Positions 1 to 32,000 of a DNA stretch of 32,000 nt are shown here, in pieces. Under the pieces are notes generated by a model that had not been told where the DNA came from, searched no databases, and saw only the letters and a list, made by a program, of their open reading frames with translations. Within the stretch, counting starts at the first letter, position 1. The number at the start of each line of letters is the position of its first letter. The translations under genes were made by a program, and so were the position numbers. The stretch lies in contig CAURWT010000002.1 of NCBI GenBank assembly GCA_963528875.1, positions 60,001-92,000 on the forward strand, in the 5' to 3' direction. Source of the stretch: an uncultured Candidatus Saccharimonas sp. (GTDB lineage Bacteria > Patescibacteriota > Saccharimonadia > Saccharimonadales > Saccharimonadaceae).

Positions 1-117
1 AAAGCAAATCTGGCGGTAATCAAATTATTAAGCGAAGAATTTGGCGTTTCGAAAAGCAAAGTTTCCTTAAAAACCGGTGTAAAATCACGATTTAAGATTT
101 TCGAAATTGAAAAATAA
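1..117 (+). CDS. C-terminal fragment of a DUF167/YggU-like small protein (start lies upstream of the window)
   Basis: Frame is open from base 1 to TAA at 115-117. The tail KANLAVIKLLSEEFGVSKSKVSLKTGVKSRFKIFEIEK resembles the conserved C-terminus of DUF167 proteins (from memory, not searched). Confidence 0.4.
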   Translation, partial: KANLAVIKLLSEEFGVSKSKVSLKTGVKSRFKIFEIEK

Positions 118-280
118 CAATTTTACTTCCATAAAAGCAATTCTATTTTAGTCATAATTAAATAGAAAAAGAAGACTATTCCTTCGATTTTTAGTTGGCA
201 GGTTTAATCTATAACACAAATAACTATAATATTTTATATAATAATTTTACAATCAGTCCATTTTATAGTATAATTTAGTT

Positions 281-610
281 ATGTTTAAAGAATTATCTCG
301 ATTAATTAGAGATTACGCAGAAAATCAATCAACCGATTCAGTGAAGCGATATTATAACGACATCGCAGACGCTTTAGATGATGAAGAGTTTCTTCAGACT
401 CTATCAAACACAGGAGTTTTAAATCAACTAGATTATCTTCTGGATAACTTCGACTACTATATATCCAATGCAGGCAATCACCAGAATGCATTAAATACAA
501 TCTATACTAACTATGTTATATATAGATCAGAACCAAAGCAGGCTATCAGTAATTTTTTGGAAAAAATTAAAAATTTTGAAAAAAAATTAAAGAAAGTGAA
601 GAAAGCTTAG
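281..610 (+). CDS. hypothetical helical protein, 109 aa; possible N-terminal part of a frameshifted longer gene
   Basis: ORF from the track with no family recognised. It ends 24 nt after an A8 run (579-586). From that run the -1 frame is open into the next ORF. Confidence 0.5.
   Translation: MFKELSRLIRDYAENQSTDSVKRYYNDIADALDDEEFLQTLSNTGVLNQLDYLLDNFDYYISNAGNHQNALNTIYTNYVIYRSEPKQAISNFLEKIKNFEKKLKKVKKA
580..586 (+). other. A_AAA_AAA slippery heptamer / A8 homopolymer linking ORFs 281-610 and 652-1152
   Basis: Zero-frame codons are GAA AAA AAA TTA. A -1 slip gives AAA AAA ATT AAA GAA..., a frame with no stop from 580 to 1152. Confidence 0.35.
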
Positions 611-651
611 AAATAATTAAAAAAGTCGCAGGTGATATATCTGGTGCTGAG

Positions 652-1902: not shown

Positions 1903-2265
1903 ATGATTGACCTTTTATTACAAACTGTGATTGTCGAAGCAATTCAAAGAAATTCAGTCTTACGATTCGAGATGGACGGAAACAAAGTTGTACACATACA
2001 ACCAGAATCAGCGTACAATTTGAATAGTGAATTCGTTGAGCTTCGCGGCTCAGCGGAAATTGTCTTTCTTGGGGGTGATGCCCCAAATAGATTTATCTCA
2101 AGAAAAGAGATTATTCAAATCTGCTTGGTGGTAGATCGAAAATCTAAAGTCAAAAAAATGATGACAGATGAAAATATTCCACCAAGAATTGAAGAGGCTT
2201 TTACAATAAAGCAGTCTAATCTTTCGAAAGAAGAGCTAGAAACACCACCTTTTTTGCGTAATTAG
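1903..2265 (+). CDS. hypothetical small protein, 120 aa
   Basis: ORF from the track, with SD GGAGGA at 1891-1896 and its own promoter and terminator. Confidence 0.6.
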   Translation: MIDLLLQTVIVEAIQRNSVLRFEMDGNKVVHIQPESAYNLNSEFVELRGSAEIVFLGGDAPNRFISRKEIIQICLVVDRKSKVKKMMTDENIPPRIEEAFTIKQSNLSKEELETPPFLRN

Positions 2266-2277
2266 CTCTTCACCCAA

Positions 2278-2299
2278 AGTCGCATTTGCGGCTTTTTAT
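2278..2299 (+). terminator. intrinsic terminator
   Basis: AGTCGC / GCGGCT stem (one G-U pair), 4-nt loop and a T5 run. Confidence 0.5.
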
Positions 2300-2310
2300 T
2301 TCGCTCAAGC

Positions 2311-2339
2311 TTGCATTTTAAAAAATCTTGTTATAAAAT
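2311..2339 (+). promoter_or_regulatory. promoter TTGCAT-17-TAAAAT for the 2398 gene
   Basis: TTGCAT at 2311-2316 and TAAAAT at 2334-2339. The leader carries a TCGG-UUCG-CCGA tetraloop hairpin flanked by direct ATAAGCTT repeats. Confidence 0.55.
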
Positions 2340-2397
2340 TTAAGCAATAAGCTTCTCGGTTCGCCGAAATCTATAAGCTTATGGGGGGAGGCTCATT

Positions 2398-2751
2398 ATG
2401 AGCAGTATTTTCATCAAACTTTTTGACGAAACCGTAAGCGAAAGACAGCTTTCGGTTGAGCTCAACAAAATCAAACCCGTTAAAATTGAAGGTGAATCTG
2501 CAGAGCGAATCGTGAAAAATCTCGAAACGCTCCTCGAGGGAAAGGATTCCCTTAGAATAACGGCTGGTGCCAATATTTTTAGTGATAAACTAGTGCTAAT
2601 GGAAGAAGTCTTCGATATTTTCGAAGAACAGAGCATTAACGATTCAGCTTATTACTATAAAATATTTCAAAATTCAGACGAAAACAATGGTTTCCAAATT
2701 TACTGTCGAAGAGGTGACGGTATTGAAATCAAAAGAATTCGTTCGAATTAA
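2398..2751 (+). CDS. hypothetical small protein, 117 aa; distant paralog of the 2868 gene
   Basis: ORF from the track with SD GGGGGGAGG. It shares motifs with the next gene: DKLVLMEEVFDIFEE vs EKIALRKEVFEELLR, and QNSDENNGFQIY vs KQNENVTGFEIF. Confidence 0.6.
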   Translation: MSSIFIKLFDETVSERQLSVELNKIKPVKIEGESAERIVKNLETLLEGKDSLRITAGANIFSDKLVLMEEVFDIFEEQSINDSAYYYKIFQNSDENNGFQIYCRRGDGIEIKRIRSN

Positions 2752-2763
2752 ATTAATATGGAA

Positions 2764-2790
2764 CCTCGCAATTTTGCGGGGATTTTTTTT
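2764..2790 (+). terminator. strong intrinsic terminator
   Basis: CCTCGCA / TGCGGGG 7-bp stem, 4-nt loop and a T8 run. Confidence 0.75.
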
Positions 2791-2794
2791 AACC

Positions 2795-2823
2795 TTGATT
2801 TTTCTTTAAAAAAGTTGTATAAT
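2795..2823 (+). promoter_or_regulatory. promoter TTGATT-17-TATAAT for the 2868 gene
   Basis: TTGATT at 2795-2800 and TATAAT at 2818-2823. Confidence 0.65.
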
Positions 2824-2867
2824 ATCAAAAGCGCTCGTTTGAGTAGCACATTAGAAAGAGGACTTAT

Positions 2868-3203
2868 ATGGCTTATTATATTTTTTCTATTCGCACTTCT
2901 GCTGGTGATGAATTTCTTTATGATGGCGACAGCGATAAACTTATGCGAGACTTAAACGCAATTGATGGGTCGAATCGCACAGGAACGGTTTTAGTTAAGG
3001 ACGAAAAAATAGCTCTTCGAAAAGAAGTTTTCGAGGAACTATTGCGAATCCGTAGCTTATTCAAACAAAATGAAAATGTTACTGGATTTGAGATTTTTGA
3101 TAGCTTTCAGTATTCGAAAGAAAGAAAATTCAGTATTGAGTTTTTAGAAAACGACATAATTGAAGTTTTTAGATTGGAGGAGGAACAAGATGAAAGCCTA
3201 TGA
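2868..3203 (+). CDS. hypothetical small protein, 111 aa; paralog of the 2398 gene
   Basis: ORF from the track with SD AGAGGA; similarity to the 2398 product as listed for that gene. Confidence 0.6.
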   Translation: MAYYIFSIRTSAGDEFLYDGDSDKLMRDLNAIDGSNRTGTVLVKDEKIALRKEVFEELLRIRSLFKQNENVTGFEIFDSFQYSKERKFSIEFLENDIIEVFRLEEEQDESL

Positions 3204-3664: not shown

Positions 3665-4183
3665 ATGTCTGAATTACCAGAAAAACAAGTAAAAAGGCTA
3701 AAAAGCTTGATTCAAGAAGCGGAAACGAATCTTGCGGCAGCTAAAGAATTGCTCATAAGCATTAGCGGTGAAGATAACACCGTGACAGCTCCAAGTAATT
3801 CCATCATCGAAAGCCCTCATGGTAAAGTTATTGAAGGTGTTTTCGATGGTCAAACTATGATTGGTCCAGATGGCAAAAATTACCCAGTTCCAGCGAATTA
3901 CGCTTCAAAATCAAAGCTTGTGGAGGGCGATATTTTGAAGCTTACAATTAATGAAGATGGTGGGTTTATTTATAAGCAAATTGGTCCAGTTCCGCGAAAA
4001 CAAATTATTGGAACACTCGTCAATCACGATGGTTCTTTCTTCGTTGAAGCAGGTGGCAATGAATATAAAATTTTGCTTGCAAGTGTAACTTACTTCCGTC
4101 TTCAAGCTGGCGACCAGGTTACAATTATTATCCCAGAAGACAACACCGACACCACTTGGGCTGCGGTCGAGGCTTCATTCTAA
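3665..4183 (+). CDS. hypothetical protein, 172 aa (N-terminal coiled coil plus a beta-rich C-terminal part)
   Basis: ORF from the track, with a clean promoter and a strong terminator. No family recognised. Confidence 0.7.
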   Translation: MSELPEKQVKRLKSLIQEAETNLAAAKELLISISGEDNTVTAPSNSIIESPHGKVIEGVFDGQTMIGPDGKNYPVPANYASKSKLVEGDILKLTINEDGGFIYKQIGPVPRKQIIGTLVNHDGSFFVEAGGNEYKILLASVTYFRLQAGDQVTIIIPEDNTDTTWAAVEASF

Positions 4184-4247: not shown

Positions 4248-4370
4248 AATTTATTTGCTTTTTTTCGAAAACTTGCTAAATATAATCGCTTATGTTAAAA
4301 TTAGTGAGTTAATTATTAACCTTAAGTACATTGACAAAAGTAATAGATATTTTAATATTATAACATAAAA

Positions 4371-4677: not shown

Positions 4678-5538
4678 ATGGAAATTATTAAAATTAAGCC
4701 TGCATCATTAGATTATTTAAAAGATTTACAACATATTCCAGACCCACCAAAACAGCTTTTTATACGAGGTCAGCTACCTTCGAAAAAGATTAAAACCGTA
4801 GCAATTGTAGGAACTCGCAAGCCGAGCGCTTATGGTAAGGAGGTTGCAACTAAAATTGCTAGTGAATGCGCCAAAAACGGTATCGTGGTAGTGAGCGGCT
4901 TAGCTTTAGGAATTGACTCGGTTGCACATCGGGCAGCGCTTGATAGCGGCGGGATTACTCTGGCGGTTCTTGCGAATGGTGTTGATAAGATTTATCCGCG
5001 TTCACATGAAGCCTTAGGGCAGAGAATTCTTGAAAATAATGGAGCAATTTTAAGCGAATACCCAAATGGAACGCCAGCCCAACCTTGGCAGTTTTTAGCA
5101 CGTAACAGAATTGTTTCAGGTCTTGCTGATGCTGTAGTAATTATTGAAGCTGCTTCGCGTAGCGGAACTCTCTCAACCGCAAATCATGCCCTCGACCAAG
5201 GAAAGGAAGTTTTTGCCGTTCCAGGAAATATCACCTCACCACTTTCTGCGGGCTGTAATCAGCTTATTAAGAACGGTGCAAATCCCTTAACTTCAATCGA
5301 AGATCTGCTCGATTTTTTAATTCCAGACCGTTTCGAAAAACAAACCAAGCTTTTCCAAGGTGACACACCGGCCGAAAACATAATTCTCGAAATTCTTTCA
5401 AAAAATGGCACAACAGCTAGTGATTCTATAATTAAGCAATCCGGGCTTTCTGTGAGCGACTTTAATCAAGCTGCAACAATGCTCGAAATTAAAGGGTTAA
5501 TCTCAAACAATGGCGGAAATATTTGGAGCTTGAAGTAG
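4678..5538 (+). CDS. dprA: DNA processing protein DprA (Rossmann-like DprA core plus C-terminal winged helix)
   Basis: Translation shows typical DprA motifs: VAIVGTRKPSAYG, VVSGLALGIDSVAHRAAL, LSEYP, FLARNRIVSGL, VIIEAASRSGTLSTANHALDQGKEVFAVPG. Confidence 0.92.
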   Translation: MEIIKIKPASLDYLKDLQHIPDPPKQLFIRGQLPSKKIKTVAIVGTRKPSAYGKEVATKIASECAKNGIVVVSGLALGIDSVAHRAALDSGGITLAVLANGVDKIYPRSHEALGQRILENNGAILSEYPNGTPAQPWQFLARNRIVSGLADAVVIIEAASRSGTLSTANHALDQGKEVFAVPGNITSPLSAGCNQLIKNGANPLTSIEDLLDFLIPDRFEKQTKLFQGDTPAENIILEILSKNGTTASDSIIKQSGLSVSDFNQAATMLEIKGLISNNGGNIWSLK

Positions 5539-5571: not shown

Positions 5572-6999
5572 ATGAAAAACTTAAAAATTAGCGATTTTTG
5601 GATTTATAAATTTCGTTACCAAATTGGAGTTGGGATTTTATCGCTCAGCTATCTTGCAATAATTATTTATACTTTATTTTTTGCACCAAATGGATTAACT
5701 GCTGGTGAAATTGAGAGCGCCAAAAGTTCAGTGAACTTAAACTTTTCAAATATTTTTTCGAAGAATATTCTAGATTTTCCATTTAGATTTTTGCAAAAAA
5801 CTAGCATTGATATTTTTGGTTTAAGCAATTTTGCAATTAAATTGCCGTCAGTTTTAATTTCTCTATGTTCGATATTTTTTATAACGAAAATCTCAGGAAT
5901 GTGGTTTTCGAAACGCGCTTCTATTTTAGCTTCTATTATTGCAATCACATCAAGCCAGTTTTTCTTTATTGCTCAAAACGGAACAAGTGAAATTCTTTAT
6001 ATTTTTTACCCAATTTTGCTAATTTGGAGCGGAATGGAATTTCTAAAAGAACCGAAAAAACGCCAAATTTTCACTTTAATTTCAATTTTAGGGCTTAGTT
6101 TTTACACACCGCTCAGTTCTTACATTGCACTAGCATTTTTAATTACAATTTTAGCTCATCCACATTTGCGGTTTATTATTAAAAAATTACCAAATTACCA
6201 AAAAATCACGGCGCTAATATTATTTTTAATAATAACTTCACCACTTTTAGTTTCGATCTTTTTCGATTTTTCAATCTTGAAGATAATTTTTGGAATTCCA
6301 AACTCTTTAAAACTTTTCGAAAATCTCAAAAGCTTGGTTTTAGCACTTTTTGGTTTTTCAAATCCAATCAGTAACGGAATGATTTCGCCAATAATCAACC
6401 CAGCAACTTCAATTTTAATCACAATCGGGCTATATTTTACATTTATCGCAAAACATTCCGCAAAAAGTTATTTAATCAATATCTGGACAACAATTCTAAT
6501 TTTAGTTTGTATCATCAACCCCACAACAATCACAATTCTTTTTACGCCAATTTTAATTTTAACGATTACAGGCCTCCAAGGTTTGATTAACACTTGGTAT
6601 GCACTCTTTCCAAAAAACCCTTATGCTCGAATTTTTGGCTTGATTCCAATTTCGATTTTTGTTTTCAACCTATTAATTACCAATCTTTCAGTTTTTGCTC
6701 TAAGCTATCGATATTCACCACAGCCGCTCGCTGCTTTTAGTCAAGATTTAAATATTTTACTTGAAAAAACAGATTCAAACCGTGTTTTGATGGTTTCGAA
6801 AAATGAAGAAGATTTTTATAAAGCACTTGAGCGTCAAGGAAGGGCAAAAGTAAAAAATAAATTCGAAGATTCTGAAGTAATTCTTTCGAAAGAAGCCTAC
6901 CAAAACGCAAAAATTCCGGCAAATTATAGCATAAAAAGAATTTTAGTTTCAAACCGTAAATATAATGCTGATAGATTTTATATTTTGCGGCGAGGTTGA
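5572..6999 (+). CDS. polytopic membrane protein, GT-C fold / GT39 (ArnT/PMT)-like glycosyltransferase
   Basis: 475 aa with more than 10 hydrophobic segments. The N-terminal third resembles ArnT/PMT_2-type proteins (FGLSNFAIKLPSVLISL...), and the C-terminal ~90 aa are soluble. Family call is from pattern only. Confidence 0.6.
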   Translation: MKNLKISDFWIYKFRYQIGVGILSLSYLAIIIYTLFFAPNGLTAGEIESAKSSVNLNFSNIFSKNILDFPFRFLQKTSIDIFGLSNFAIKLPSVLISLCSIFFITKISGMWFSKRASILASIIAITSSQFFFIAQNGTSEILYIFYPILLIWSGMEFLKEPKKRQIFTLISILGLSFYTPLSSYIALAFLITILAHPHLRFIIKKLPNYQKITALILFLIITSPLLVSIFFDFSILKIIFGIPNSLKLFENLKSLVLALFGFSNPISNGMISPIINPATSILITIGLYFTFIAKHSAKSYLINIWTTILILVCIINPTTITILFTPILILTITGLQGLINTWYALFPKNPYARIFGLIPISIFVFNLLITNLSVFALSYRYSPQPLAAFSQDLNILLEKTDSNRVLMVSKNEEDFYKALERQGRAKVKNKFEDSEVILSKEAYQNAKIPANYSIKRILVSNRKYNADRFYILRRG

Positions 7000-7353: not shown

Positions 7354-7371
7354 TTTTTTCGAAAGAGAAAA

Positions 7372-7989: not shown

Positions 7990-8966
7990 TGAATTTCGAA
8001 AATGCAAAAAAAATAGTTGAAAATGCAGAAAAAATTTGCGTTATTCAGGCTGAAAACCCCGATGGCGACAGTTTAGGGTCAGCTTTAGGATTAGAAGAAA
8101 TTTTAAGCGAGTTAGGCAAAGAAGTTAAACTTTTCTGTCCAGTTGACATCCCTAAATATTTGCGATATTTTAAGGGCTGGGATAGAGTGGAAAGTTCAAT
8201 TTATGAAAAATTTGACCTTTTTATTATTGTTGATACAACTAGCAGCATTCTACTATCAAAAATAATTGAGGACCCGATTTATAAAAACTTACTTGAAAAA
8301 ACGCCAGTTTTAGTTATTGACCACCATACCGATGCAACACCAGATTTGTTTTTTAAACACGAATTAATTTTAGAAGAGGCTAGTTCGGCAGGTGAATTAA
8401 TTTTCGAAATTGCAAAAGCAAATCGCTGGAAAATTAATGAAAACGCTGCACAAAATTTACTTGGGGCGATTTTTAGCGACACACTTGGGCTTTCAACGAG
8501 CAATACTTCAGCCAGAACTTTTGAAGTTGCTAGCGAATTAACAAAACTTGGCGCAAATTCAGCCAAACTTGAAGAGGATCGCCGTGAACTTTCGAAAAAA
8601 GCACCTGAAATTTTAAAATATAAGGGAGAACTAATTCAGCGAATTGAATATTTTTTAGATGGAAAATTAGCAGTTGTACATATTCCATGGAGCGAGATTA
8701 AAGAATACTCTGATAAGTATAACCCAAGTGTTTTAGTGATTGATGAAATGCGAATGGTTGAAGGTGTAGAAGCTTGCGTGGCTATAAAAACCTACCCAGA
8801 TGGTAAATTGACAGGGAAAGTTCGCACGAACTCACCAGTCGCGGCTGATATCGCTGGTTATTTTGGTGGCGGCGGCCACGCTTATGCTGCAGGCTTTCGA
8901 ATTTATGAGAATTATGATGAAACTTTGCAAGAATTAATTAGTTGCTGTTGGAAAATTCTGGGCTAA
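7989..8966 (+). CDS. nrnA: DHH/DHHA1 phosphoesterase, NrnA-like (oligoribonuclease / pAp phosphatase family)
   Basis: Contains NPDGDSLGS, VIDHH and GGGGHAYAAG motifs. The start overlaps the recR stop (TAATG). Confidence 0.8.
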   Translation: MNFENAKKIVENAEKICVIQAENPDGDSLGSALGLEEILSELGKEVKLFCPVDIPKYLRYFKGWDRVESSIYEKFDLFIIVDTTSSILLSKIIEDPIYKNLLEKTPVLVIDHHTDATPDLFFKHELILEEASSAGELIFEIAKANRWKINENAAQNLLGAIFSDTLGLSTSNTSARTFEVASELTKLGANSAKLEEDRRELSKKAPEILKYKGELIQRIEYFLDGKLAVVHIPWSEIKEYSDKYNPSVLVIDEMRMVEGVEACVAIKTYPDGKLTGKVRTNSPVAADIAGYFGGGGHAYAAGFRIYENYDETLQELISCCWKILG

Positions 8967-9430: not shown

Positions 9431-9784
9431 TTATCGATTATCTCCGCTACCATGAATCTTATCTCGCCGTTGTCGACTAGCTAATTTTTCAAGATTAGTT
9501 TTTGCGATATCTTCAAGCCTGATATCGTTATAAAAGGCTAGGGCAGAAAGATACCACAAGACATCACCAAGTTCTTTTTCAAGCCTCTTACGGTCTTCTT
9601 GTGTAGTTTCGAAAACTCCGCCTTTGTCTCGAATCATTTTCTTGATTATTTCTAAAACTTCACCAGTTTCACCGGCCAACCCAAGAGCTTTTTCCATATA
9701 GCCATTGTAGCGAGCAGATTTGGTAGTAGCGCCATGTGCAACATCTGTTTGGACAGCTTGATTTTGGTATTCATTAAAATTCAT
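9431..9784 (-). CDS. MazG-like nucleotide pyrophosphohydrolase domain protein
   Basis: 117 aa. LGLAGETGEVLEIIKK...EKELGDVLWYL is the EXXE...E..D MazG-type helical signature. SD AAGGAGGG; extended -10 TGTTATTAT at 9829-9821. Confidence 0.8.
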   Translation of the reverse strand: MNFNEYQNQAVQTDVAHGATTKSARYNGYMEKALGLAGETGEVLEIIKKMIRDKGGVFETTQEDRKRLEKELGDVLWYLSALAFYNDIRLEDIAKTNLEKLASRQRRDKIHGSGDNR

Positions 9785-10183: not shown

Positions 10184-10609
10184 TTACTTTTCGTTTGCCT
10201 TATTCGAAATAATCTCAATCGCTTCGGTTAATAGATTAATCTCTTTTAAAGAAATATCACCAAAGATTTCTTCACACCATTTAACTAGAATTTGCTGACG
10301 AATGTTCAGTTTTTCTTTACCTAGTTTTGTAATTTCAATTTCACGAATTCGCTTATCTTTCTGTGAGTTTTTCTTTAAAATTATTTTTTTCTCTTCCATT
10401 TTAACTAAAACTCGCGAAATATAGGCCTTATCAACACCAATTTCTTTAGAGATTTCATCTTGCGGAGCAGAAGAATTATAAATTTTGGTTAAAATTGCAG
10501 CCTCAATAGCCGAAATATCGTTTTTCGAAAGCTCGCGTGTTGCATATTTTTGTGCCGAGCGATAAATTGTATTAATTTTTTGCAATAAATCAAGAATCTT
10601 TTCTTCCAT
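10184..10609 (-). CDS. MarR family transcriptional regulator
   Basis: 141 aa winged-HTH pattern (LSKNDISAIEAAILTKIY...QDEISKEIGVDKAYISRVLVKMEEKKIILKK...DKRIREIEITKLGKE). Confidence 0.85.
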   Translation of the reverse strand: MEEKILDLLQKINTIYRSAQKYATRELSKNDISAIEAAILTKIYNSSAPQDEISKEIGVDKAYISRVLVKMEEKKIILKKNSQKDKRIREIEITKLGKEKLNIRQQILVKWCEEIFGDISLKEINLLTEAIEIISNKANEK

Positions 10610-13852: not shown

Positions 13853-13871
13853 TTTTAAGCCTTTCGAAAAG

Positions 13872-13900: not shown

Positions 13901-13918
13901 GATTTCGAAAGCTAAATC

Positions 13919-23979: not shown

Positions 23980-25038
23980 ATGGAACAAGAAACTCAGATT
24001 CAGAATGAAAAAATCCAGTTGATTCAAACGGTTATTTCGAATGCTTTGCAAGTTATCGACCAACCGCGAGAACGCGAAATTATCAACCGCCGATTTGGGC
24101 TTGGCGAGCAAAAAGAAACTCTCGAACAAATTGGCGAAAGGCTTGATATTACTCGTGAGCGAGTTCGTCAGCTTGAAAAAGCCGCGCTTATTAGGCTAAA
24201 AATTGCTGCCGAAAAGGGAAATATTGAACATCTTGCTGAAATCGAAAAAACTATAATTCGAAATCTTGCCGAAGTTGGGCGAATTTCGAAAACTAAAAAT
24301 CTTGTTGAAAAAACTATTGAATCTGAGTCGAGCGATCAGCAAATTTTTAACTTTTTATTTATTGCTGAAATTAGTTCGAAATTAGTTTTAGTCCAAGAAA
24401 ACGATAAATACCACAGTGCAATCGCCAATGCAGAATACGGCGACGAACGAAAGATTAAAAAATCAATCGATGAAATTGTCAATATCATCAAAAAGAATAA
24501 AAGTCCAGTAACCTTGGAGCAGTTAGACGAGCAATTAAGTTATGAACATCCAAGCCAAATTAGTGCGATCGCCAGCGTTTCAAAATTACTCGCAACTTTA
24601 AACGGTCTTTGGGGTCTTGAAAAATGGCCAGCAGTGAATCCGAAAAATATTCGCGACAAAATTTTTGTGATTTTAGAAAGCCAAAAAAAGCCAATGCATT
24701 TTTCAGAAATTGCTGAAGAAATTCGAAAGAGTGACTTTAGCCGAAAAGCGGTTACAACTCAAGCAATTCATAATGAGCTAATTAAAGACAAACGTTTTGT
24801 TTTGATTGGCCGTGGAATTTACGCACTCGACACTTGGGGCTTTAAACGTGGAACTGTAGCCGATATAATTACGGCGGTTCTTAAGGAAGCGGGCAAACCA
24901 CTCTACCGAGATGAAATCGTAAAACGTGTGCTTGAAAAGCGCAAAGTTAAAGAGACAACCGTTTTATTAAATCTTCAAAGTAAAAAAGAGTTCAAACGCG
25001 TAGCAAAAGCAACTTACACTTTAGCTGAACTCGCCTAA
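23980..25038 (+). CDS. sigma-70 region-4 HTH fused to three HARE-HTH-like winged-helix repeats (not a complete sigma factor)
   Basis: The N-terminus REREIINRRFGLGEQKETLEQIGERLDITRERVRQLEKAALIRLK is region 4.2, and no region 2 is present. The C-terminal repeats IVNIIKKNKSPVTLEQL, IFVILESQKKPMHFSEIAEEI...GRGIYAL and IITAVLKEAGKPLYRDEIVKRV...ATYTL resemble the RNAP-delta-type HARE-HTH (pattern recall). Confidence 0.65.
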   Translation: MEQETQIQNEKIQLIQTVISNALQVIDQPREREIINRRFGLGEQKETLEQIGERLDITRERVRQLEKAALIRLKIAAEKGNIEHLAEIEKTIIRNLAEVGRISKTKNLVEKTIESESSDQQIFNFLFIAEISSKLVLVQENDKYHSAIANAEYGDERKIKKSIDEIVNIIKKNKSPVTLEQLDEQLSYEHPSQISAIASVSKLLATLNGLWGLEKWPAVNPKNIRDKIFVILESQKKPMHFSEIAEEIRKSDFSRKAVTTQAIHNELIKDKRFVLIGRGIYALDTWGFKRGTVADIITAVLKEAGKPLYRDEIVKRVLEKRKVKETTVLLNLQSKKEFKRVAKATYTLAELA

Positions 25039-25049: not shown

Positions 25050-25078
25050 CGCTCAAAAATTTGAGCGGGTTTTATTTT
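25050..25078 (+). terminator. intrinsic terminator
   Basis: CGCTCAAA..TTTGAGCG hairpin followed by GGTTTTATTTT. Confidence 0.6.
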
Positions 25079-25107
25079 CGAAAAACCAAAAAGCATAACC
25101 ACCATCT

Positions 25108-25144: not shown

Positions 25145-27937
25145 ATGACGGCATTTTTTTCAATCTTATTTAACCCTCTAGTTTGGCTAACAATTGTGGC
25201 AATTTTAGCTTTTTTAACTTGGCAAAATTACAAAAAAATCGATAAATTAACTGTAATGAATACTGACAGCGTTCTTTTAGCGTTGGAAATTCCAAAAACT
25301 AATGATAAATCAGAGCTTGCCGCCGAGCAACTCCTTGCCAGTTTGCACGGAATTCTACGAGACCCAACTGAACTTAAAAATAACAATGGCGTTCAGGAAC
25401 ATTTAAGTTTCGAAATTGTATCTGTTAATGGCGCAATTCGGTTTTATGTTTGGATGCCGAGAACTTTGCAAAGTTTTGTGGAAGGGCAAATTTACTCACA
25501 ATATCCAACAGTTCAAATTTATGAAGCAAAAGAAGATTACGCAGAAAATCTCGAAAATAAACACGTAATTTATTCAACTGAAATTGATTTGATTGAAAAT
25601 GAAGCCTTACCAATTAAAACTTTTGATGGTTTCGAAGTTGACCCACTTGCAGGAATTACTGGAACGCTTGCAAAATTAGACGGAACAAATGACCAGCTAT
25701 GGATTCAAGTTTTAGCACGACCAGTTGCCGATGATTGGCATAAAAAGTTGGATGAATGGGTGAAGAAAGTTAAGTCTGGCAAAAAAGCTTTCAAAATTGA
25801 TTGGAAATATATTTTGCGAATTCTAGAAGCGCTTTGGACGCCACCAGAAGGTTCAGAAAATGCTAAAAAAGAACCGTCCGACCGCGATAAAACTCGCATT
25901 TCGAAAGCTGAAGAAAAGGCCACAAAGCTCGGTTATCAAGTTAAAATTCGTTTGGCATATTTAGGTGAAGATGAAGATACTGCGCGGCTTCAAATTCAAG
26001 CTTTAACTGGAACTTTCAAACAGTTTAATAGTACAAATTTAAATGGTTTTAAGGCTTCGAATTCTTCACTCGATAAAGATAAAATTCGAGATTTTCAGTC
26101 GCGAATATTCTTTGATGACGGATTTATTCTAAATATTCAAGAGCTCGCCAGCATTTGGCATTTACCGCACACAAACGTAGAAACTCCAAATATTGTTTGG
26201 GCTTCAAGTAAAACCGCTGAACCACCTTCGAAATTACCAATAATTACTGGCGACCGCGCGCATGATGAAAATATTTCAGCTTTTGGTTTAACAAACTTTC
26301 GTGGAATTAATCACCAATTTGGAATGCTTCGCCGCGACCGTTCGCGCCACCTTTATATTATTGGTCAAACGGGAACCGGAAAGTCTGGATCGCTTGAACT
26401 TTTGGCGCTTTCGGATATTTTTCATGGTGAAGGATATGCAATTATCGACCCGCATGGCGATTTTGCGCAAAACAACATGCGATTCATTCCCGAACATCGT
26501 CTTAATGATGTAATTTACTTTAATCCTGCCGACACAGAATTTCCACTTGGTTTCAATCCACTCGAAGTAACTGATCCGAGCCGAAAATCGAATATTTCTT
26601 CCGAGGTTATCGGTGTTTTAAAACGTATGTTTGGTGATTCTTGGGGTCCTCGTCTTGAATATATCTTGCGCTTCACGCTTCTGGCACTTCTCGACCGCCC
26701 AGAAACTACAATGCTTGATATTTCAAGAATGCTAACAGATGGCGATTTTCGAAAAGAGACTTTAACTTATTGTAAAGATGACTCCGTACTTCAATTCTGG
26801 AAAAAGGAATTTGGTCAATGGGGTGAAAAACAGGTAAATGAGGCAATCGCACCGATTTTAAATAAGGTTGGAGCTTTCACAGCAAACCCAATTATTCGAA
26901 ATATCATTGGTCAGCCAAAATCGACCTTTAATATTCGCGAGATTATGGATGAAGGTAAAATCTTGGTTGTTAATCTTTCGAAAGGGTTAATCGGTGAAGA
27001 TAACGCCTCAGTTCTTGGTTCCTTTTTGGTAACTAAAATTCAGCTTGCCGCCCAATCGCGCGCAGATATCGAACGACTTGAAGATCGCCGACCGTTTCAT
27101 CTTTATGTTGATGAATTTCAAAACTTTGCTACCGATTCTTTTGCGGTAATTCTTTCAGAAATTCGAAAATATGGCTTAACTTTAACCGTTGCTAATCAAT
27201 ATGTTTCACAAATGACCGACAGCGTTAAAAATGCGGTTTTTGGAAATGTTGGATCAATCATTTCGTTCCGCGTTTCAGTTGAAGATGCTCCAATTTTAGC
27301 CGAGCAATTTAAGCCGCAATTCGATGCTTCAGATTTAATGAGTTTAAATAACCGCCATTTTGTAATGACGATGATTATTAATGGCGAAAAATCAACACCA
27401 TTTAGCGCAACAACTTTAACTTTGCCAAAACCTTTTAATGATTTGAGTGCAAAGATTATTGAAAATACGCGCCGAAATTACAGTACGCCACGGGCTGTCA
27501 TCGAACAACGCATCCGCGATATTCTAGTGCCACCAAAAGAACTAATGACAAAAGCTTGGGCGGAACGAAACGGCGTTGAATTTTCGAAAAAGGTTGCGGA
27601 AAATGTTTTTGCGCCAGTTAAAAATCAAGGAATTTTGAACCAAAAATCCCAGAACATAAAACCAATAGCAAAACAACAAAACTTCACGCCAGTTCAACCA
27701 ATGTTTGAAGCGAAAAAAATTGATTTTTCGAAAGCACCAATTGATCCAAAAAAGATTAGCCCAAATTCTGCCGAACAAAAAGAGCCAAGTTTAGGCCTTA
27801 AGGATCTTTCGAAAGCTTTTGCTGAAAAAGGAATTGAAATTCCGCAAGTAAAAAAACGCCGCAAACCGCGTTCGCGAAATTTAAAACCGCAAACTCGAGA
27901 AACTCAAAATACAAATAATCTTAAAATTGAGCATTAG
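25145..27937 (+). CDS. membrane-anchored VirD4/TraD/TrwB-like (type IV coupling protein family) P-loop ATPase
   Basis: N-terminal TM (LVWLTIVAILAFLTW), Walker A YIIGQTGTGKSG and Walker B FHLYVDEFQNF, then RKYGLTLTVANQYVSQ. The C-terminus is a Lys/Gln/Pro-rich tail. ATG 25145 is preferred over the TTG at 25061, which overlaps the upstream terminator. Confidence 0.8.
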   Translation: MTAFFSILFNPLVWLTIVAILAFLTWQNYKKIDKLTVMNTDSVLLALEIPKTNDKSELAAEQLLASLHGILRDPTELKNNNGVQEHLSFEIVSVNGAIRFYVWMPRTLQSFVEGQIYSQYPTVQIYEAKEDYAENLENKHVIYSTEIDLIENEALPIKTFDGFEVDPLAGITGTLAKLDGTNDQLWIQVLARPVADDWHKKLDEWVKKVKSGKKAFKIDWKYILRILEALWTPPEGSENAKKEPSDRDKTRISKAEEKATKLGYQVKIRLAYLGEDEDTARLQIQALTGTFKQFNSTNLNGFKASNSSLDKDKIRDFQSRIFFDDGFILNIQELASIWHLPHTNVETPNIVWASSKTAEPPSKLPIITGDRAHDENISAFGLTNFRGINHQFGMLRRDRSRHLYIIGQTGTGKSGSLELLALSDIFHGEGYAIIDPHGDFAQNNMRFIPEHRLNDVIYFNPADTEFPLGFNPLEVTDPSRKSNISSEVIGVLKRMFGDSWGPRLEYILRFTLLALLDRPETTMLDISRMLTDGDFRKETLTYCKDDSVLQFWKKEFGQWGEKQVNEAIAPILNKVGAFTANPIIRNIIGQPKSTFNIREIMDEGKILVVNLSKGLIGEDNASVLGSFLVTKIQLAAQSRADIERLEDRRPFHLYVDEFQNFATDSFAVILSEIRKYGLTLTVANQYVSQMTDSVKNAVFGNVGSIISFRVSVEDAPILAEQFKPQFDASDLMSLNNRHFVMTMIINGEKSTPFSATTLTLPKPFNDLSAKIIENTRRNYSTPRAVIEQRIRDILVPPKELMTKAWAERNGVEFSKKVAENVFAPVKNQGILNQKSQNIKPIAKQQNFTPVQPMFEAKKIDFSKAPIDPKKISPNSAEQKEPSLGLKDLSKAFAEKGIEIPQVKKRRKPRSRNLKPQTRETQNTNNLKIEH

Positions 27938-27993: not shown

Positions 27994-28686
27994 ATGAACA
28001 AAAGTAATTTAATAGAAGTTAAGAATCTCGTCAAAGTTTATCGCGACGGCAATACGTATTTTAAAGCACTAAATGGCGTTTCTTTTAGCATTCAAAAAGG
28101 TGAAAGCGTTGCAATTATCGGTAAATCTGGTAGCGGAAAATCAACACTTATGCACCTTTTAGCAGCGCTCGACAAACCAAATGAGGGTGAAATTTTAATT
28201 AATGGCCAAAATATTGCTAAAATGAAAAAACGCGAATTGAATAAACTTCGAAACCAAACTTTTGGCTTTGTTTTTCAACAATTTTTTATGAATCCAAAAG
28301 ACACGGTTTTACAAAATGTGATTCTACCGCTTAAAATTGCCGGAGTTGGTTCAAGAAAGCGCAAAGAAATTGCTCTAAAAGCTCTCGAATCTGTTGAGCT
28401 AACCGACAAAGCTAAAAATAAAGCTTCAAATCTTTCTGGTGGTCAAAAACAACGTGTCTGCGTGGCTCGCGCAATTGCAAATTCACCAGAAATTATTTTC
28501 GCCGATGAACCAACAGGAAATCTCGACTCAAAAACAAGCAAAAAAATTGAGGATTTACTTTTTGGTTTAAATAAGGAAAGCGGAATTACACTGATTATTG
28601 TAACGCACGATGAATCTTTGGCTGCAAAATGTGATCGCCAGATTCGAATTCAAGACGGACAAATTGTTTCGAAAGGAGAAAAATAA
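27994..28686 (+). CDS. ABC transporter ATP-binding protein, MacB/LolD/FtsE-like
   Basis: GKSGSGKST, LSGGQKQRVCVARA, IIFADEPTGNLD and IIVTHD motifs. SD AAGGAAGGA. Confidence 0.9.
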   Translation: MNKSNLIEVKNLVKVYRDGNTYFKALNGVSFSIQKGESVAIIGKSGSGKSTLMHLLAALDKPNEGEILINGQNIAKMKKRELNKLRNQTFGFVFQQFFMNPKDTVLQNVILPLKIAGVGSRKRKEIALKALESVELTDKAKNKASNLSGGQKQRVCVARAIANSPEIIFADEPTGNLDSKTSKKIEDLLFGLNKESGITLIIVTHDESLAAKCDRQIRIQDGQIVSKGEK

Positions 28687-29969
28687 TGAAATTTTTAGAT
28701 ATGGTTGGAACCTCAGCATCAAATTTGTGGCGAAATAAAGGCCGAACTTTCTTGACGATTATTGCGGTTTGTATCGGCTCTTTTACTATAGCATTAACCT
28801 CTGCTGTAAATATCGGCGTGAATGATTATATCCAAAAACAGCTTTCGGTTTTTGGTGACGACTCTATAATTTATTTTCAACCAAAGAAGGACAATGGCAT
28901 AACTTTTGGGCCACAAGAATACAAAGAAGGCGATTCTAAAAAAGCTGGCTCTAGATATGCTCAGCAGACTCTAAATTCTAAAGATCTTGAAAAAATTAAT
29001 AAAATTTCAAACGTTAAAAATGCCCGCTTCTACAAAATAGCAACACCAGACTATATTCAATATAAAGATGGCAAGAAACTTACAATTACATCTGTTATAG
29101 TGGAAGTTGAAGGACAAAAATTTGACTTTGATTTCTTAGCTGGAGGTAAACCAAAAAATAAAGATGAGGTAACAATTTCTCAGGATTATCTTGAACCTCT
29201 AGGCTTAAAAAATGCTCAAGACGCGATCGGTAAAAAAGTAACCTTTCAAGTTTCAGATTCTTTGACAGGTGAAAAGAAAATTATCACCCAGAAAGTTTCA
29301 GGCGTAACAGCTAAGAGCTTGATTCAGTCAGCAATGGTAACAATTAACGAACCAACCTTTAATGAAATTTATGACTTCCAAACAAAAAGCTTACCACTAG
29401 AATCGAAAGAGAAAAGTATTTCTGCTCTAGCTCAAATTGAAGGAAAAGTAACTGAGGATAAATTAAATCAAATCAAAGAAGATGCTAAAAAAGCAGGTTA
29501 TTCAGCAAACACAGCTAAAGACCAAGTTGAAACTATCATGAATGTTGTAAATGGAATTACTGGATCTTTGATTGTTTTTGGTGCGATTGCACTTCTTGCG
29601 GCTAGTTTTGGAATTATTAACACACTTTACATGAGCGTGCGCGAACGAACTCGTGAGATTGGTTTAATGAAAGCAATGGGGCTTTCGAACCGAAAGATTT
29701 TCCAACTTTTCAGTATTGAAGCAATTTTGATTGGTTTAATTGGTTCAATTTTAGGAATTTTACTCGCATCTTTAGCAGGGGACGCCTTAAATAGCTTCGC
29801 CTCAAAAGATTTCTTAAAAGGGCTTGAAGGATTTAATTTAACTAAATTTACAATTGAGAATAGTATAACTATAACTTTAATTATTGCAGTTGTGGCATTT
29901 TTGGCAGGAGCTTTGCCAGCACGAAGCGCCAGCAAAAAAGACCCAATCGAAGCTTTGAGATACGAATAG
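28686..29969 (+). CDS. ABC transporter permease, FtsX/MacB type (N-terminal TM, large extracytoplasmic domain, 3 C-terminal TMs)
   Basis: RNKGRTFLTIIAVCIGSFTI start, REIGLMKAMGLSNRKIF loop and C-terminal PARSASKKDPIEALRYE. The ATG overlaps the upstream TAA (TAATG). Confidence 0.88.
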   Translation: MKFLDMVGTSASNLWRNKGRTFLTIIAVCIGSFTIALTSAVNIGVNDYIQKQLSVFGDDSIIYFQPKKDNGITFGPQEYKEGDSKKAGSRYAQQTLNSKDLEKINKISNVKNARFYKIATPDYIQYKDGKKLTITSVIVEVEGQKFDFDFLAGGKPKNKDEVTISQDYLEPLGLKNAQDAIGKKVTFQVSDSLTGEKKIITQKVSGVTAKSLIQSAMVTINEPTFNEIYDFQTKSLPLESKEKSISALAQIEGKVTEDKLNQIKEDAKKAGYSANTAKDQVETIMNVVNGITGSLIVFGAIALLAASFGIINTLYMSVRERTREIGLMKAMGLSNRKIFQLFSIEAILIGLIGSILGILLASLAGDALNSFASKDFLKGLEGFNLTKFTIENSITITLIIAVVAFLAGALPARSASKKDPIEALRYE

Positions 29970-30710
29970 ATGGCACGAAAACACCGCATTTCGCAAAATT
30001 TCTTGCGTTCGCCACGAATTGCACTAATGCTTGTTGGGCATAGCAATATTCGAAAACGCGATTTTACGCTAGATATTGGCGCTGGAAGCGGTGTTTTTAC
30101 TTTTGCCCTTAGCAAGAAATCTGCTCAAGTTTTGGCAATTGAATTTGACCGCGAAACTTTCAAAAAACTCCAAAATAACACTAAAAATTTAGAGAATATT
30201 GAAGTTTTATGCGCAGATTTTTTGCGCTTCAACCTTTCGAAATTACCAAAAAATTATAAAGTTTGCGCAAATATTCCTTTTCACTTGAGTTCACCAATTA
30301 TCCAAAAGCTTACAAATGCTCAAAATTCACCAAAAAGCATTTATTTAATTTTACAAAAACAATTCGCCCGCAAACTAATTGTGAGTGATAAAAATTTTAC
30401 TTCCGCACTTGGTGTAAAAATATTTCCGTTTTTCGAAAGTAAAATTAAAAAACCTCTTCAAAAATCTGATTTTACGCCTCCACCGGCTGTTGAAACGGTA
30501 TTTTTCGAAATGAAACGGCGAGAAACTCCGCTAATTTCGAAGGAAGAACAGCCAATTTTTAATGATTTTATTAAAAAAATGTTTGCTGTGCCAGATTTTT
30601 ACAAAAAAAATTGCCAACCAAAATTTAAAACTAAAAAACCAAGCGAATTAAAGGGTGAAGAGTGGTTGGAGATATGGAAGTTTTGGCAAAATTCTGATAA
30701 AATAGAATAA
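29970..30710 (+). CDS. rRNA adenine N6-methyltransferase family protein, Erm-like by length and collinearity (KsgA not excluded)
   Basis: 246 aa with SQNFL, LDIGAGSGVFT, AIEFD, ANIPFHLSSPII, IYLILQKQFARKL and FTPPPAVETV. It is collinear with ErmB as I recall that sequence. The ATG directly abuts the permease TAG. Confidence 0.75.
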   Translation: MARKHRISQNFLRSPRIALMLVGHSNIRKRDFTLDIGAGSGVFTFALSKKSAQVLAIEFDRETFKKLQNNTKNLENIEVLCADFLRFNLSKLPKNYKVCANIPFHLSSPIIQKLTNAQNSPKSIYLILQKQFARKLIVSDKNFTSALGVKIFPFFESKIKKPLQKSDFTPPPAVETVFFEMKRRETPLISKEEQPIFNDFIKKMFAVPDFYKKNCQPKFKTKKPSELKGEEWLEIWKFWQNSDKIE

Positions 30711-30712
30711 TT

Positions 30713-32000
30713 ATGGCACGGAAAATTAAGTTCGAAATAGCTAAATTTAATAAAATTACGCCTGGCGGGCAAGCCTTAGGCACGCTTGAAAATGGCAAAA
30801 AAATCTTTGCTTGGGGAGTTTTACCAAATGAAACCGCAAAAATTCAAATTACAAAAAGTAAATCGAGTTTTGTAGAGGGTTTTGCGGTTGAAATTTTCGA
30901 AAGTTCGCCCGAGAGAATTGAGCAAAAAGATAAGGAGAGTTTTCTTTCAACCAGCCCATGGCAGATTTTTAACTTTGATTTCGAACAAAAAACCAAACAA
31001 GAACTAATTTTTGAAAGTTTTCGCCAAGAAAAAATTGAACTCAAAAACCAAGAAGATTTTTATTCTGATGGTAAAATTTTTGAATATCGCAATAAAGTGG
31101 AGTTTTCATTTTGGTGGGAAAAATCTGGAGAAAATGAAAATGATGGCGAGCTAAGTTTAGCATTTTTTAAGCGTGGAGGAAAGGGAAAAATACCAGTAAA
31201 AGGTACGAGTTTAGCGAAGCCAGAAATCAATCAAGCAGGCCAAAAAGTGCTTGCAATTTTACGAGATAGAAAAACTGCAAGTCGAGATTTGAAGACTTTA
31301 TTAATTCGCGCAAACCAAAAAGGTGAAATTTCAGCCCAACTTTATGTAAAAGATGAAAAGTTTGAGCCATTTTCGAAAAAAGAAATAACTAGCCTTGGAT
31401 TTAAAAATTTTGAGATTATTTTTTCAAACCCAAAATCGCCAGCCAGTGTGATAACTAAAAAGATTCAAAGCCAAAACCAAGAGAATCTGCAAGATTCAGT
31501 TCTTGGCGTGAATTTTAATTATGCAACTGAGAGCTTTTTTCAGATAAATCTACCAGTTTATGAACAGGCTCTGCGCGACATGAAAAAATTCATCGATATT
31601 TCAAAGCCAACAGTTGATTTATACTCCGGTGTAGGATCGATTGGTTTAACGATTGGTGCGGGTGATCTAACTTTGGTTGAAATCAACGAGCCAGCAGTTG
31701 AAGAAATGCGAAGAAATATTACAAAGCTTGGGCGAGAAAAAACCGCAAAAGCTATTTTATCACCAAGCGAAAAAGCTTTAGACTTCATTAAAAAAGGTGC
31801 AAATTTAATTGTTGACCCACCGCGAGCCGGAATGAACCGTGAAGTTTGCGAAAAGATTCTTGAGATAGAGCCAGAAAAGGTGATTTATTTGAGTTGCAAT
31901 CCAACAACGCAAGCACGTGATGCGGCAATTTTAAGTAAAAAATATGAGATAATTTACACTCGTGGCTATAACTTCTTCCCACGAACACCGCATATTGAAA
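30713..32000 (+). CDS. TRAM-domain (uracil-5)-RNA methyltransferase, RlmD/RlmCD/TrmA family (3' end beyond the window)
   Basis: Hand translated; the frame is open from ATG 30713 to the window edge. It has an N-terminal TRAM-like beta region plus FFQIN, DLYSGVGSIGL, VDPPRAGM and YLSCNPTT (catalytic Cys). It lacks the Fe-S cysteine cluster of RumA. Confidence 0.85.
   Translation, partial: MARKIKFEIAKFNKITPGGQALGTLENGKKIFAWGVLPNETAKIQITKSKSSFVEGFAVEIFESSPERIEQKDKESFLSTSPWQIFNFDFEQKTKQELIFESFRQEKIELKNQEDFYSDGKIFEYRNKVEFSFWWEKSGENENDGELSLAFFKRGGKGKIPVKGTSLAKPEINQAGQKVLAILRDRKTASRDLKTLLIRANQKGEISAQLYVKDEKFEPFSKKEITSLGFKNFEIIFSNPKSPASVITKKIQSQNQENLQDSVLGVNFNYATESFFQINLPVYEQALRDMKKFIDISKPTVDLYSGVGSIGLTIGAGDLTLVEINEPAVEEMRRNITKLGREKTAKAILSPSEKALDFIKKGANLIVDPPRAGMNREVCEKILEIEPEKVIYLSCNPTTQARDAAILSKKYEIIYTRGYNFFPRTPHIE

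Follow-up and report, generated by a model that had tools for sequence, protein, structure and literature searches.

The reason for which genomes carry highly iterated palindromes has been debated for thirty years, almost wholly on the basis of HIP1 (GCGATCGC), an ancient motif found phylum-wide in cyanobacteria. DNA uptake sequences and uptake signal sequences (DUS/USS), which occur at densities of about one per kb or higher, are the other obvious reference, and a transmission advantage of the alleles that carry them has been proposed as a model for their spread. A third case is Campylobacter jejuni, in which DNA is discriminated during transformation depending on methylation of RAATTY by CtsM. 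HIP1, which is methylated by DmtC in Synechocystis and Synechococcus, has been found to enhance transformation, an effect that depends on methylation, and it has recently been proposed to be an uptake signal driven through the genome by transformation (bioRxiv 10.64898/2026.06.24.733823). Here we describe the palindromic octamer TTTCGAAA, with TTCGAA as its inner hexamer, in a 32-kb stretch of DNA with 35.6% GC (contig CAURWT010000002.1, positions 60,001 to 92,000; hereafter "the window", whose own numbering is used for coordinates). TopA homologues place the organism among the Saccharibacteria, with Ca. Nanogingivalis sp. as its closest named relative (81% identity). Saccharibacteria are tiny bacteria that live on other bacteria. 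A literature search found no report of TTTCGAAA in this group, nor any of an iterated palindrome or an uptake sequence.

The window contains 102 TTCGAA sites, among them 57 copies of TTTCGAAA, which agrees well with an earlier note on this DNA that had estimated about 100 and 55-60. Dinucleotide-preserving shuffles gave 26.1±4.9 TTCGAA (maximum 41) and 6.0±2.8 TTTCGAAA (maximum 14), and none of them approached the observed counts; base composition alone predicts 10.8 TTCGAA, in line with the order of ten that the note had supposed. TTTCGAAA is the commonest octamer of the window, above runs of A or T, and at z=21-26 it stands well clear of all other palindromic octamers. It occurs about once per 600 bases in genes and spacers, a density that falls within the range of HIP1 and the DUS as had been suggested, and the 4-10 fold excess of TTCGAA is not that of a site under avoidance. 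The flanks, which we read on the contig that carries the window (ENA ERZ28636975 scaffold_8, 374.8 kb), have the same density: there are 31 TTCGAA and 18 TTTCGAAA in the left flank (9.7 kb) and 27 and 11 in the right (8.7 kb). Window and flanks together (50.4 kb) hold 160 TTCGAA and 86 TTTCGAAA, spread uniformly at about 3.2 hexamers per kb. The motif-free stretches that had been listed do exist, but their sizes are not unusual, as the longest is 1375 nt and a gap of at least this length has P=0.73 under random placement. We therefore rejected the gap statistic as a mark of foreign DNA. The motif-poor genes do tend to be strain-variable or hypothetical, with two TTCGAA in seven such genes against about 11 expected, a comparison that uses a post hoc grouping and a hand Poisson estimate.

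Most sites lie within genes. One null model was a shuffle in which synonymous codons were permuted within each of the 29 coding sequences (CDSs) that we defined. The CDSs, on both strands, hold 90 TTCGAA (88% of the sites) compared to 28.4±4.5 in these shuffles, and 47 TTTCGAAA compared to 8.6±2.6. Even a very conservative shuffle, which in addition held constant the junction dinucleotide and codon positions one and two, yielded only 56.6±4.6 TTCGAA (z=7.3). Among all 4096 hexamers, TTCGAA ranks first in excess over the synonymous null (z=13.9), and its own sub-words come next. The hexamer uses all three codon phases, with 46 sites at offset 2, 25 at offset 0, and 19 at offset 1. Serine between T and AA is encoded by TCG in 46 of 81 cases but in only 73 of 574 cases elsewhere, and the Phe-Glu dicodon is written TTCGAA 25 times and TTTGAA 15 times even though TTT outnumbers TTC by 353 to 133 overall. 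Non-coding DNA (4.2 kb) contains 11 TTCGAA, compared to 2.6±1.4 in shuffles, and 10 TTTCGAAA, compared to 0.9±0.8, so that 10 of its 11 sites are the complete octamer. In the spacers, free of coding constraints, the motif shows its full 8-bp form. In genes, codon choice bends to the motif. A coding by-product is excluded, and we rejected a codon or dipeptide explanation on the strength of the two types of synonymous shuffle, the phase counts, and the non-coding counts. The earlier note had argued for selection or drive at the DNA level, and that argument survives the three tests it named: codon-preserving shuffles fall short of the observed count, the sites are spread over all codon phases and the spacers, and the enrichment continues in both flanks and in related species.

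The repeated unit is short. The bases adjoining TTCGAA are T in 70 and A in 79 of the 102 sites, a weak pyrimidine/purine (Y/R) preference follows farther out, and there is no preference beyond that, so the unit is 8-10 bp and no longer repeat is involved. TTCGAA with neither the T nor the A extension is barely enriched (19 in 50 kb). We compared variants pooled over 117.5 kb of the enriched lineages with an order-1 expectation, and the observed/expected ratio (O/E) was 8.4 for TTTCGAAA, 2.3-3.0 for variants at the outermost position, 1.4-2.3 for those at the next position, 0.44-0.63 for variants of the TCGA core, and 1.03 for the CpG-transition variant TTTTGAAA/TTTCAAAA. Variants at the outermost position are also 7-24 times denser than in sister lineages. 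Recognition is graded: the TCGA core is indispensable, T/A at ±3 and ±4 add progressively, and a weak Y/R preference remains at ±5. This profile, which is similar to a position weight matrix (PWM), resembles the energetics of protein-DNA binding, as has been reported for uptake sequences, and it is unlike the all-or-none recognition of a hexamer. The AsuII/BstBI-type site TTCGAA does lie within the motif, as had been pointed out, but the selected unit is the octamer with graded tolerance at its ends and not this hexamer as such.

The enrichment is confined to few relatives. We collected close relatives as syntenic ±10-kb loci at graded TopA distance, by means of exact-protein look-ups, and calculated their expected counts with an order-1 model. 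At 92% TopA identity (locus L087, 37% GC) there are 66 TTCGAA against 22 expected and 40 TTTCGAAA against 4.4. At 87% (L088, 41.5% GC) the counts are 94 against 25 and 46 against 4.9, and at 81% (L089, from Nanogingivalis, 40% GC) they are 72 against 34 and 26 against 5.9. The locus at 72% (L090, 42% GC) has 26 TTCGAA against 19 and 10 TTTCGAAA against 3.0, while those at 70% (L091, 36% GC) and 68% (L092, 38% GC) have 4 against 12 and 7 against 10, with a single TTTCGAAA each (1.7 and 1.4 expected). TTCGAA is in fact the most under-represented palindromic hexamer of L091 (4 versus 12.1). As L091 and L092 share GC content and synteny with the window and show no enrichment, GC content is not the cause, and we ruled out an artefact of this kind. 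Of the ten NTCGAN classes, TTCGAA alone rises, by 10-20 fold over sister lineages, and the window lineage shows no change in the remaining TCGA contexts. The O/E of CG is 1.3-1.7 in enriched lineages compared to 1.1 in the sisters. It is in a narrow Saccharibacteria clade around Ca. Nanogingivalis that the trait arose, and L090 is an intermediate.

A scan of genome contigs with TopA patterns was tried as another source of close relatives, but the patterns were too general and gave no close relative among the matches listed; its loci were kept as distant negative controls, namely 21 from Saccharibacteria (among L007-L029) and 59 from other phyla. TTCGAA was found 68 times in the pooled Saccharibacteria controls against 145 expected, and 292 times in the other phyla against 429, a milder deficit. 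That Saccharibacteria outside the clade have a deficit exceeding the one of other phyla is a hint that restriction specific for TTCGAA is common around these organisms. No other Saccharibacteria locus among the matches listed (22 kb each) had a k-mer outlier of comparable size. In the metagenomes of the JGI, which we scanned for triple octamers, the matches inspected among those listed were locally clustered copies and not a dispersed enrichment. A 4-kb piece (L158) of the 171-kb contig ERZ773031 NODE-3 has 36% GC and 17 dispersed TTCGAA (4.2 per kb), encodes HIT, RlmH, an ABC ATPase, and a fragment of glucose-6-phosphate dehydrogenase, and may be another chromosomal region of a genome of the same clade. 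IMG/VR was scanned for three octamers within about 80 nt, and two phage-like contigs, L122 (IMGVR_UViG_3300044959_000237) and L133 (IMGVR_UViG_3300020567_000331), have 8.0 and 6.3 TTCGAA per kb. Both are generally rich in TTCG/CGAA and in CpG, ACATAT and GGGTAG are strongly repeated in L122, and no link of either contig to Saccharibacteria was shown. Some further words are over-represented, among them AGCTTG and GCTTGA (21 versus 5 and 23 versus 7, by a synonymous-shuffle or Markov null) and CGCCAG/CGCCAA (66 versus 15 in L090); these extra words, seen in the window, L090, L009, and L025, appear to be shared across the family and to have no relation to TTCGAA.

Codon alignments of up to 15 orthologous genes showed how individual sites have come and stayed. 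The presence of the motif at aligned positions is nested by phylogeny and is free of indels. In the 12 genes common to the window, L087, L088, and the outer lineages L090, L091, and L092, 16 sites occur in the window, L087, and L088 alike and 15 in the window and L087 only, while 11 are private to the window, 4 to L087, and 32 to L088, with very few in the outer lineages. The outgroup state is usually 2-4 positions away from the hexamer. Amino acids are affected as well, since those of motif-touching codons differ from the outgroups at a rate of 0.50 in L088, compared to 0.31 in other codons (p=4e-8), and of 0.39 in the window, compared to 0.30 (p=0.025). In topA and the DUF87 ATPase gene, motifs were made by replacements of F-D by F-E and of L-K by L-R (D→E, K→R), and in L088 as many as four motifs lie within 60 nt. 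Codon-stratified synonymous identity within motifs was 95/121, 73/94, and 44/55, where 81, 55, and 31 were expected from the same codons outside (Cochran-Mantel-Haenszel tests, p=0.003, 2e-5, and 1.5e-4); there was no excess relative to the weakly enriched L090 and a deficit relative to L091. TCG codons were identical in 21 of 30 cases inside motifs and in 20 of 43 outside. The sites are made in place by point substitution, in all phases and in spacers, at times at the price of an amino acid; once present they are kept longer than neighboring synonymous sites, and they are still accumulating independently in each sub-lineage.

The likeness to HIP1 is extensive. Both motifs are perfect 8-bp palindromes around a CG-containing hexamer that is a known restriction/methylation site, and both reach past the hexamer that a methylase would read. 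They share a 10- to 40-fold excess with about one or more copies per gene, occurrence in non-coding DNA and in all frames of coding DNA, spread by substitution instead of insertion, conservation between relatives above expectation, and a host lineage that is naturally transformable. At the sequence level, everything that characterizes a highly iterated palindrome is found here: a singular palindromic octamer that occupies spacers and every frame, spreads by substitution, and is conserved above background. The present motif differs in its sequence, which is AT-rich, in belonging to Saccharibacteria/Patescibacteria, and in marking a clade of genus or family level where HIP1 is phylum-wide; no cognate methyltransferase was found in 50 kb, and quasi-periodic spacing was not reproducible. 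With DUS/USS it shares gene sites in all frames at some cost to the protein, a graded core-plus-flank profile, lineage specificity with quantitative differences between sub-lineages, a seemingly sparser occurrence in strain-variable or hypothetical genes (here in the post hoc grouping), signs of frequent recombinational import, and a density of roughly one per kb or above. The DUS of Neisseria is read by the minor pilin ComP. By analogy to CtsM/RAATTY and DmtC-methylated HIP1, a frequent short palindrome could be a methylated self-tag by which DNA is accepted in natural transformation, although the abundance of RAATTY largely tracks AT content and TTTCGAAA is far above composition. Restriction-site avoidance concerns the same AsuII/BstBI hexamer and the sister lineages show its usual deficit, but the sign is opposite in the clade, with 10-20 fold more sites than in the sisters. 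REP (repetitive extragenic palindromic) and MITE (miniature inverted-repeat transposable element) repeats differ in that the information here is confined to 8-10 bp, with 88% of sites in CDSs and no indels.

The region also bears on how DNA is exchanged. The window encodes dprA (4678-5538, + strand; PF02481, E=1e-77), as the earlier note had recognized; its product is the recombination mediator of natural transformation, and the lineage thus keeps transformation machinery, although the gene is context only and its link to the motif presumptive. Saccharibacteria are naturally transformable via comEC (PMC10633639), a gene that was not seen in the 50 kb. Next to the window lie pilin-like N_methyl genes, which vary greatly from strain to strain. 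In two pairs of strains of this species, taken from different samples, the sequences are identical over many kilobases and nearly all differences lie in one tract. Between L093 and L094, 147 of 153 single-nucleotide polymorphisms (SNPs) fall in a stretch of about 5 kb immediately left of the window (~4-9 kb in locus coordinates), which covers the His-kinase/secE/nusG/L11 region; between L095 and L096, 163 of 164 fall in a stretch of about 3 kb that covers the pilin-like genes and lies immediately beyond the right end of the window (12-15 kb in locus coordinates, roughly 32-35 kb in those of the window). Divergence in these tracts is up to 7% per kb, and the pattern looks like recombinational import of foreign alleles. 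In other prokaryotes, TTCGAA is a methylated motif with N6-methyladenine on its last A (bioRxiv 10.64898/2026.06.24.734251).

As judged from about 50 kb and the loci of relatives, TTTCGAAA appears to be a lineage-specific highly iterated palindrome that forms a genome-wide DNA "watermark". The explanation that we put forward, which we consider plausible while stopping short of calling it probable, is that a clade-specific recognition factor biases transformation and recombination toward DNA with the motif and in this way drives and maintains it. Such a factor would be dimeric and would favor motif-carrying DNA in natural transformation and homologous recombination; candidates are a receptor for uptake and a methyltransferase whose mark on TTCGAA lets incoming DNA be accepted. 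Alleles that create motifs would then be passed preferentially between cells, amounting to molecular drive, possibly joined by selection for discrimination of self-DNA. More specifically, TTTCGAAA could be a recently arisen uptake or self-recognition signal of this one clade, palindromic and possibly read through methylation, a proposal that we offer only tentatively and with some doubt.

Several observations weigh against an explanation through uptake or recombination. The 50 kb contain no motif-specific receptor, methyltransferase, or nuclease, and the only methyltransferases there act on RNA. The known DUS/USS are asymmetric 9-12-mers that are often paired at terminators, unlike the palindrome found here. 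Nanosynbacter, a transformable genus, and other Saccharibacteria have no iterated motif in 22 kb, so that the phylum as a whole is not characterized by an uptake signal. The spacing offers no consistent regularity, as the coefficient of variation (CV) is 0.96 in L087, which is random, and 1.49 in L088, and sites are clustered in L088 and L089. The conservation of sites, their nested gains, and their cost in amino acids fit a repair-based drive or structural selection equally well. Lastly, the sample comprises about 50 kb of the organism's own genome and syntenic 22-kb loci of relatives and not whole genomes.

Pfam, NCBIfam, and PADLOC searches over the window, its 9-10 kb flanks, and the loci of relatives found no cognate methylase or nuclease. 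The enzymes met in this search were RNA methyltransferases, the canonical tRNA enzyme Tgt, and two different defence islands inserted beside topA in relatives, and neither Tgt nor the PabI-like restriction-modification (R-M) pair nor the MmeI-like enzyme explains TTCGAA, so we rejected them as its cause. The PabI-like type II pair (L088:6374-8258) has no TTCGAA in 2.1 kb, and the other island (L089:12391-18290), with the MmeI-like enzyme, a helicase, and a T5orf172 protein, is as rich in the motif as core genes. The first 1400 nt of L088 also lack TTCGAA; they include a small CRISPR array (L088:1028-1262) with the type II-like repeat GTTTTAGAGTCGTGTTAAATAAGAGAGTACTAAAAC and three 30-nt spacers, for which no exact match, and so no protospacer, was found in IMG/VR.

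The first alternative to consider is a repair ratchet linked to a methyltransferase, without any role in uptake. A clade-specific (orphan) TTCGAA methyltransferase together with strand- or site-directed mismatch correction would convert near-cognate sites and protect existing ones, and the palindrome would accumulate as a by-product; Elhai reportedly proposed an origin of this kind for HIP1. That the palindrome holds an AsuII/BstBI-type site agrees with this, as does the greater stability of CpGs in motifs compared to the same codons outside (the TCG counts given above). The deficit of TTCGAA in the sister L091 and in the distant Saccharibacteria suggests that TTCGAA R-M systems circulate in the phylum, and these could leave orphan methylases behind. 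Cyanobacterial HIPs, moreover, co-occur with methyltransferases (PMC4390886; bioRxiv 10.64898/2026.06.24.733823). However, the CpG-transition neighbors are not depleted: apart from the O/E of TTTTGAAA/TTTCAAAA near one, TTCAAA stands at 1.44 relative to synonymous shuffles, and the signature of very-short-patch repair (TTTGAA/TTCAAA depletion), which we considered, was not seen. Most gains lie 2-4 substitutions from the outgroup state, for which a repair bias in the last step alone is a weak explanation, the graded enrichment depends on bases beyond the hexamer, and no methyltransferase of this kind or Vsr/MutH-like gene is present in 50 kb. On balance, we regard the ratchet as unlikely.

A second alternative, to which we would give rather little weight, is that an abundant dimeric DNA-binding protein, associated with the nucleoid or organizing the chromosome and new or re-specified in the clade, uses the sites as an array, which ordinary selection on chromosome structure or compaction would maintain. 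A perfect palindrome with PWM-like tolerance, conserved and about as dense in coding as in non-coding DNA, is what such a protein might bind, and within the window the sites are spaced a little more evenly than at random (CV 0.83 compared to 0.98, p≈0.03). A structural role has also been proposed for HIP1 (cited in bioRxiv 10.64898/2026.06.24.733823). The evenness is not reproduced in the relatives, however, and L088 is strongly clustered, with 45 inter-site gaps below 60 nt. The fast turnover of sites and the many lineage-specific gains would not be expected if each position had its function, and no candidate protein was identified; YbaB, for which the window has a gene, is universal and occurs in motif-free lineages too.

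A neutral, context-dependent mutation bias, caused for example by a lineage-specific polymerase or repair defect and conferring neither function nor transmission advantage, would fit the general rise of CpG in the enriched lineages and the gradual onset along the phylogeny. We consider it very unlikely, because only one of the ten NTCGAN classes is raised, because the 8-bp palindrome was reached by varied substitutions from many precursors, unlike the product of a simple context bias, and because the sites are conserved above the synonymous background and were made at a cost in amino acids. The remaining candidates, a protein- or translation-level effect (a dipeptide, codon, or codon-pair preference) and a dispersed REP/MITE-like or other mobile element, have as their one attraction that offset 2 (x-Ser-Lys/Asn) is the commonest coding context (46 of 90), and are refuted to the point of deserving almost no credence by the use of all three phases, the equal enrichment of non-coding DNA, the shortfall of synonymous shuffles, and, for an element, the end of flank conservation at ±1 nt and the absence of indels at orthologous sites with most sites in CDSs.

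For the individual sites of the window, the coordinates given in the earlier note were exact at 1814-1821, 13862-13869, 13903-13910, 7995-8000, 8591-8596, and 26895-26900 and were 1-10 nt off at four others, whose correct positions are 4263-4270, 7357-7364, 16548-16555, and 25076-25083. The intergenic copies of TTTCGAAA lie at 47-54, 99-106, and 1474-1481, at 1814-1821 between the tRNA-Gln gene (- strand) and the open reading frame (ORF) at 1903 (+), at 4263-4270 upstream of dprA, at 7357-7364 in the ybaB-recR spacer, at 16548-16555 between divergent genes, and at 25076-25083 between the sigma-70 gene and that of the DUF87/TrwB ATPase. The terminator hairpin of rplA (13866-13895) is flanked by octamers on both sides, as had been described: 13862-13869 lies at its 5' foot, and 13903-13910 closely follows the T-run of the terminator and overlaps the -35-like hexamer of a promoter-like site of cysS.

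Within CDSs, with the codon offset of the hexamer in brackets, TTTCGAAA is found at 2222-2229 in the gene of a hypothetical 120-aa protein (2), at 5331-5338 in dprA (0), at 5906-5913 (2), 6315-6322 (0), 6794-6801 (2), and 6884-6891 (2) in that of a PMT_2 glycosyltransferase, and at 7994-8001 (0, N-F-E-N), 8402-8409 (0), and 8590-8597 (2, L-S-K) in that of a DHH phosphoesterase. Further copies are at 9607-9614 in a MazG-like gene (- strand; 0), 10523-10530 in a MarR gene (-; 2), 11028-11035 (2), 12021-12028 (2), and 12586-12593 (0) in the gene of an ABC2 membrane protein, and 14298-14305, 14349-14356, and 15279-15286 in cysS (all 2). The AI-2E transporter gene (-) has one at 16214-16221 (2), dus one at 17570-17577 (1), and a 65-aa CDS one at 17618-17625 (0). 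Six are in the ABC-F gene (-), at 18213-18220 (1), 18409-18416 (0), 19087-19094 (0), 19202-19209 (2), 19559-19566 (2), and 19665-19672 (1), and four in a GT4 glycosyltransferase gene (-), at 19944-19951 (2), 20277-20284 (2), 20566-20573 (1), and 21099-21106 (2). These are followed by 22874-22881 (2), 23451-23458 (0), and 23753-23760 (2) in topA, 24284-24291 (2) in the sigma-70 gene, and 25408-25415 (0), 25899-25906 (2), 26747-26754 (1), 26976-26983 (2), 27582-27589 (2), 27726-27733 (2), and 27807-27814 (2) in the DUF87/TrwB ATPase gene. The last copies are at 28667-28674 (2) in an ABC ATPase gene, at 30235-30242 (2), 30431-30438 (0), and 30503-30510 (0) in the gene of an Erm/KsgA-like rRNA methyltransferase, and at 30895-30902 (0) and 31371-31378 (2) in that of an RlmD-like enzyme.

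Most of the 45 sites that have the hexamer only agree with the octamer at seven of eight positions, and the one at 1712 is the T-loop of tRNA-Gln. They start at 1712, 2620, 2742, 3016, 3113, 4446, 4779, 5757, 6862, 7876, 8896, 10203, 11209, 11491, 14088, 14722, 16971, 17130, 17414, 17667, 17913, 18345, 19335, 19881, 20035, 20527, 21611, 22051, 22478, 24036, 24257, 24375, 24722, 25631, 26056, 26227, 26895, 27162, 28247, 28643, 29684, 30049, 30536, 30731, and 30980.

Some genes of the region have features of their own. Ribosomal protein L1 (12758-13852; 364 aa) is extended at its N-terminus by about 130 aa, in which Lys, Glu, and Ala are abundant, and neither its gene nor the L087 orthologue contains TTCGAA. 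There are two methyltransferases of the RrnaAD family: one (L095:17568-18455; 295 aa) is a genuine KsgA/RsmA above the NCBIfam cut-off, and the other (29970-30710; 246 aa) is an Erm/KsgA-like paralogue that is shorter, stays below both cut-offs, is fused in an operon with the RlmD-like enzyme, and is conserved in relatives with and without the motif. The DUF8128/DUF87/TrwB-type ATPase (25145-27937; 930 aa) is conserved, its gene stands beside the sigma-70 gene in all relatives examined, and the protein is weakly similar to the DNA translocase CedD and to TraD/VirD4, the coupling proteins of conjugation. Three small tandem ORFs (1903-3203; 120, 117, and 111 aa) contain 1, 2, and 2 TTCGAA, and together with neighbors at 281-1152 and 3665-4183 they lie between tgt/DUF167 and dprA. 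None of these six ORFs has a Pfam or PADLOC match, and those at 281-610, 652-1152, and 3665-4183 have no TTCGAA.

In contrast to the ancient HIP1, TTTCGAAA looks like a young case, being strong in a few close species, weak in one intermediate, and absent or avoided in syntenic sisters of the same GC content. A distribution that is young and bracketed in this way would place the gain of the responsible factor on a short branch, where it can be sought by the presence and absence of genes, and the motif-poor sisters and the intermediate lineage could make the responsible receptor or methylase identifiable by simple comparative genomics. Even under a repair ratchet, the data reveal a force at the level of DNA with the strength to rewrite amino acids (D→E, K→R) in topA and other core genes. 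If it is instead a signal for uptake or self-recognition, it would be the first of its kind in the candidate phyla radiation. Natural transformation occurs in the host phylum, which became genetically tractable only lately. Should the motif bias which DNA is taken up or accepted, its inclusion in constructs could improve the genetics of uncultivated-type oral Saccharibacteria, and it would reveal how an epibiont that is bathed in the DNA of its host recognizes its own kind.

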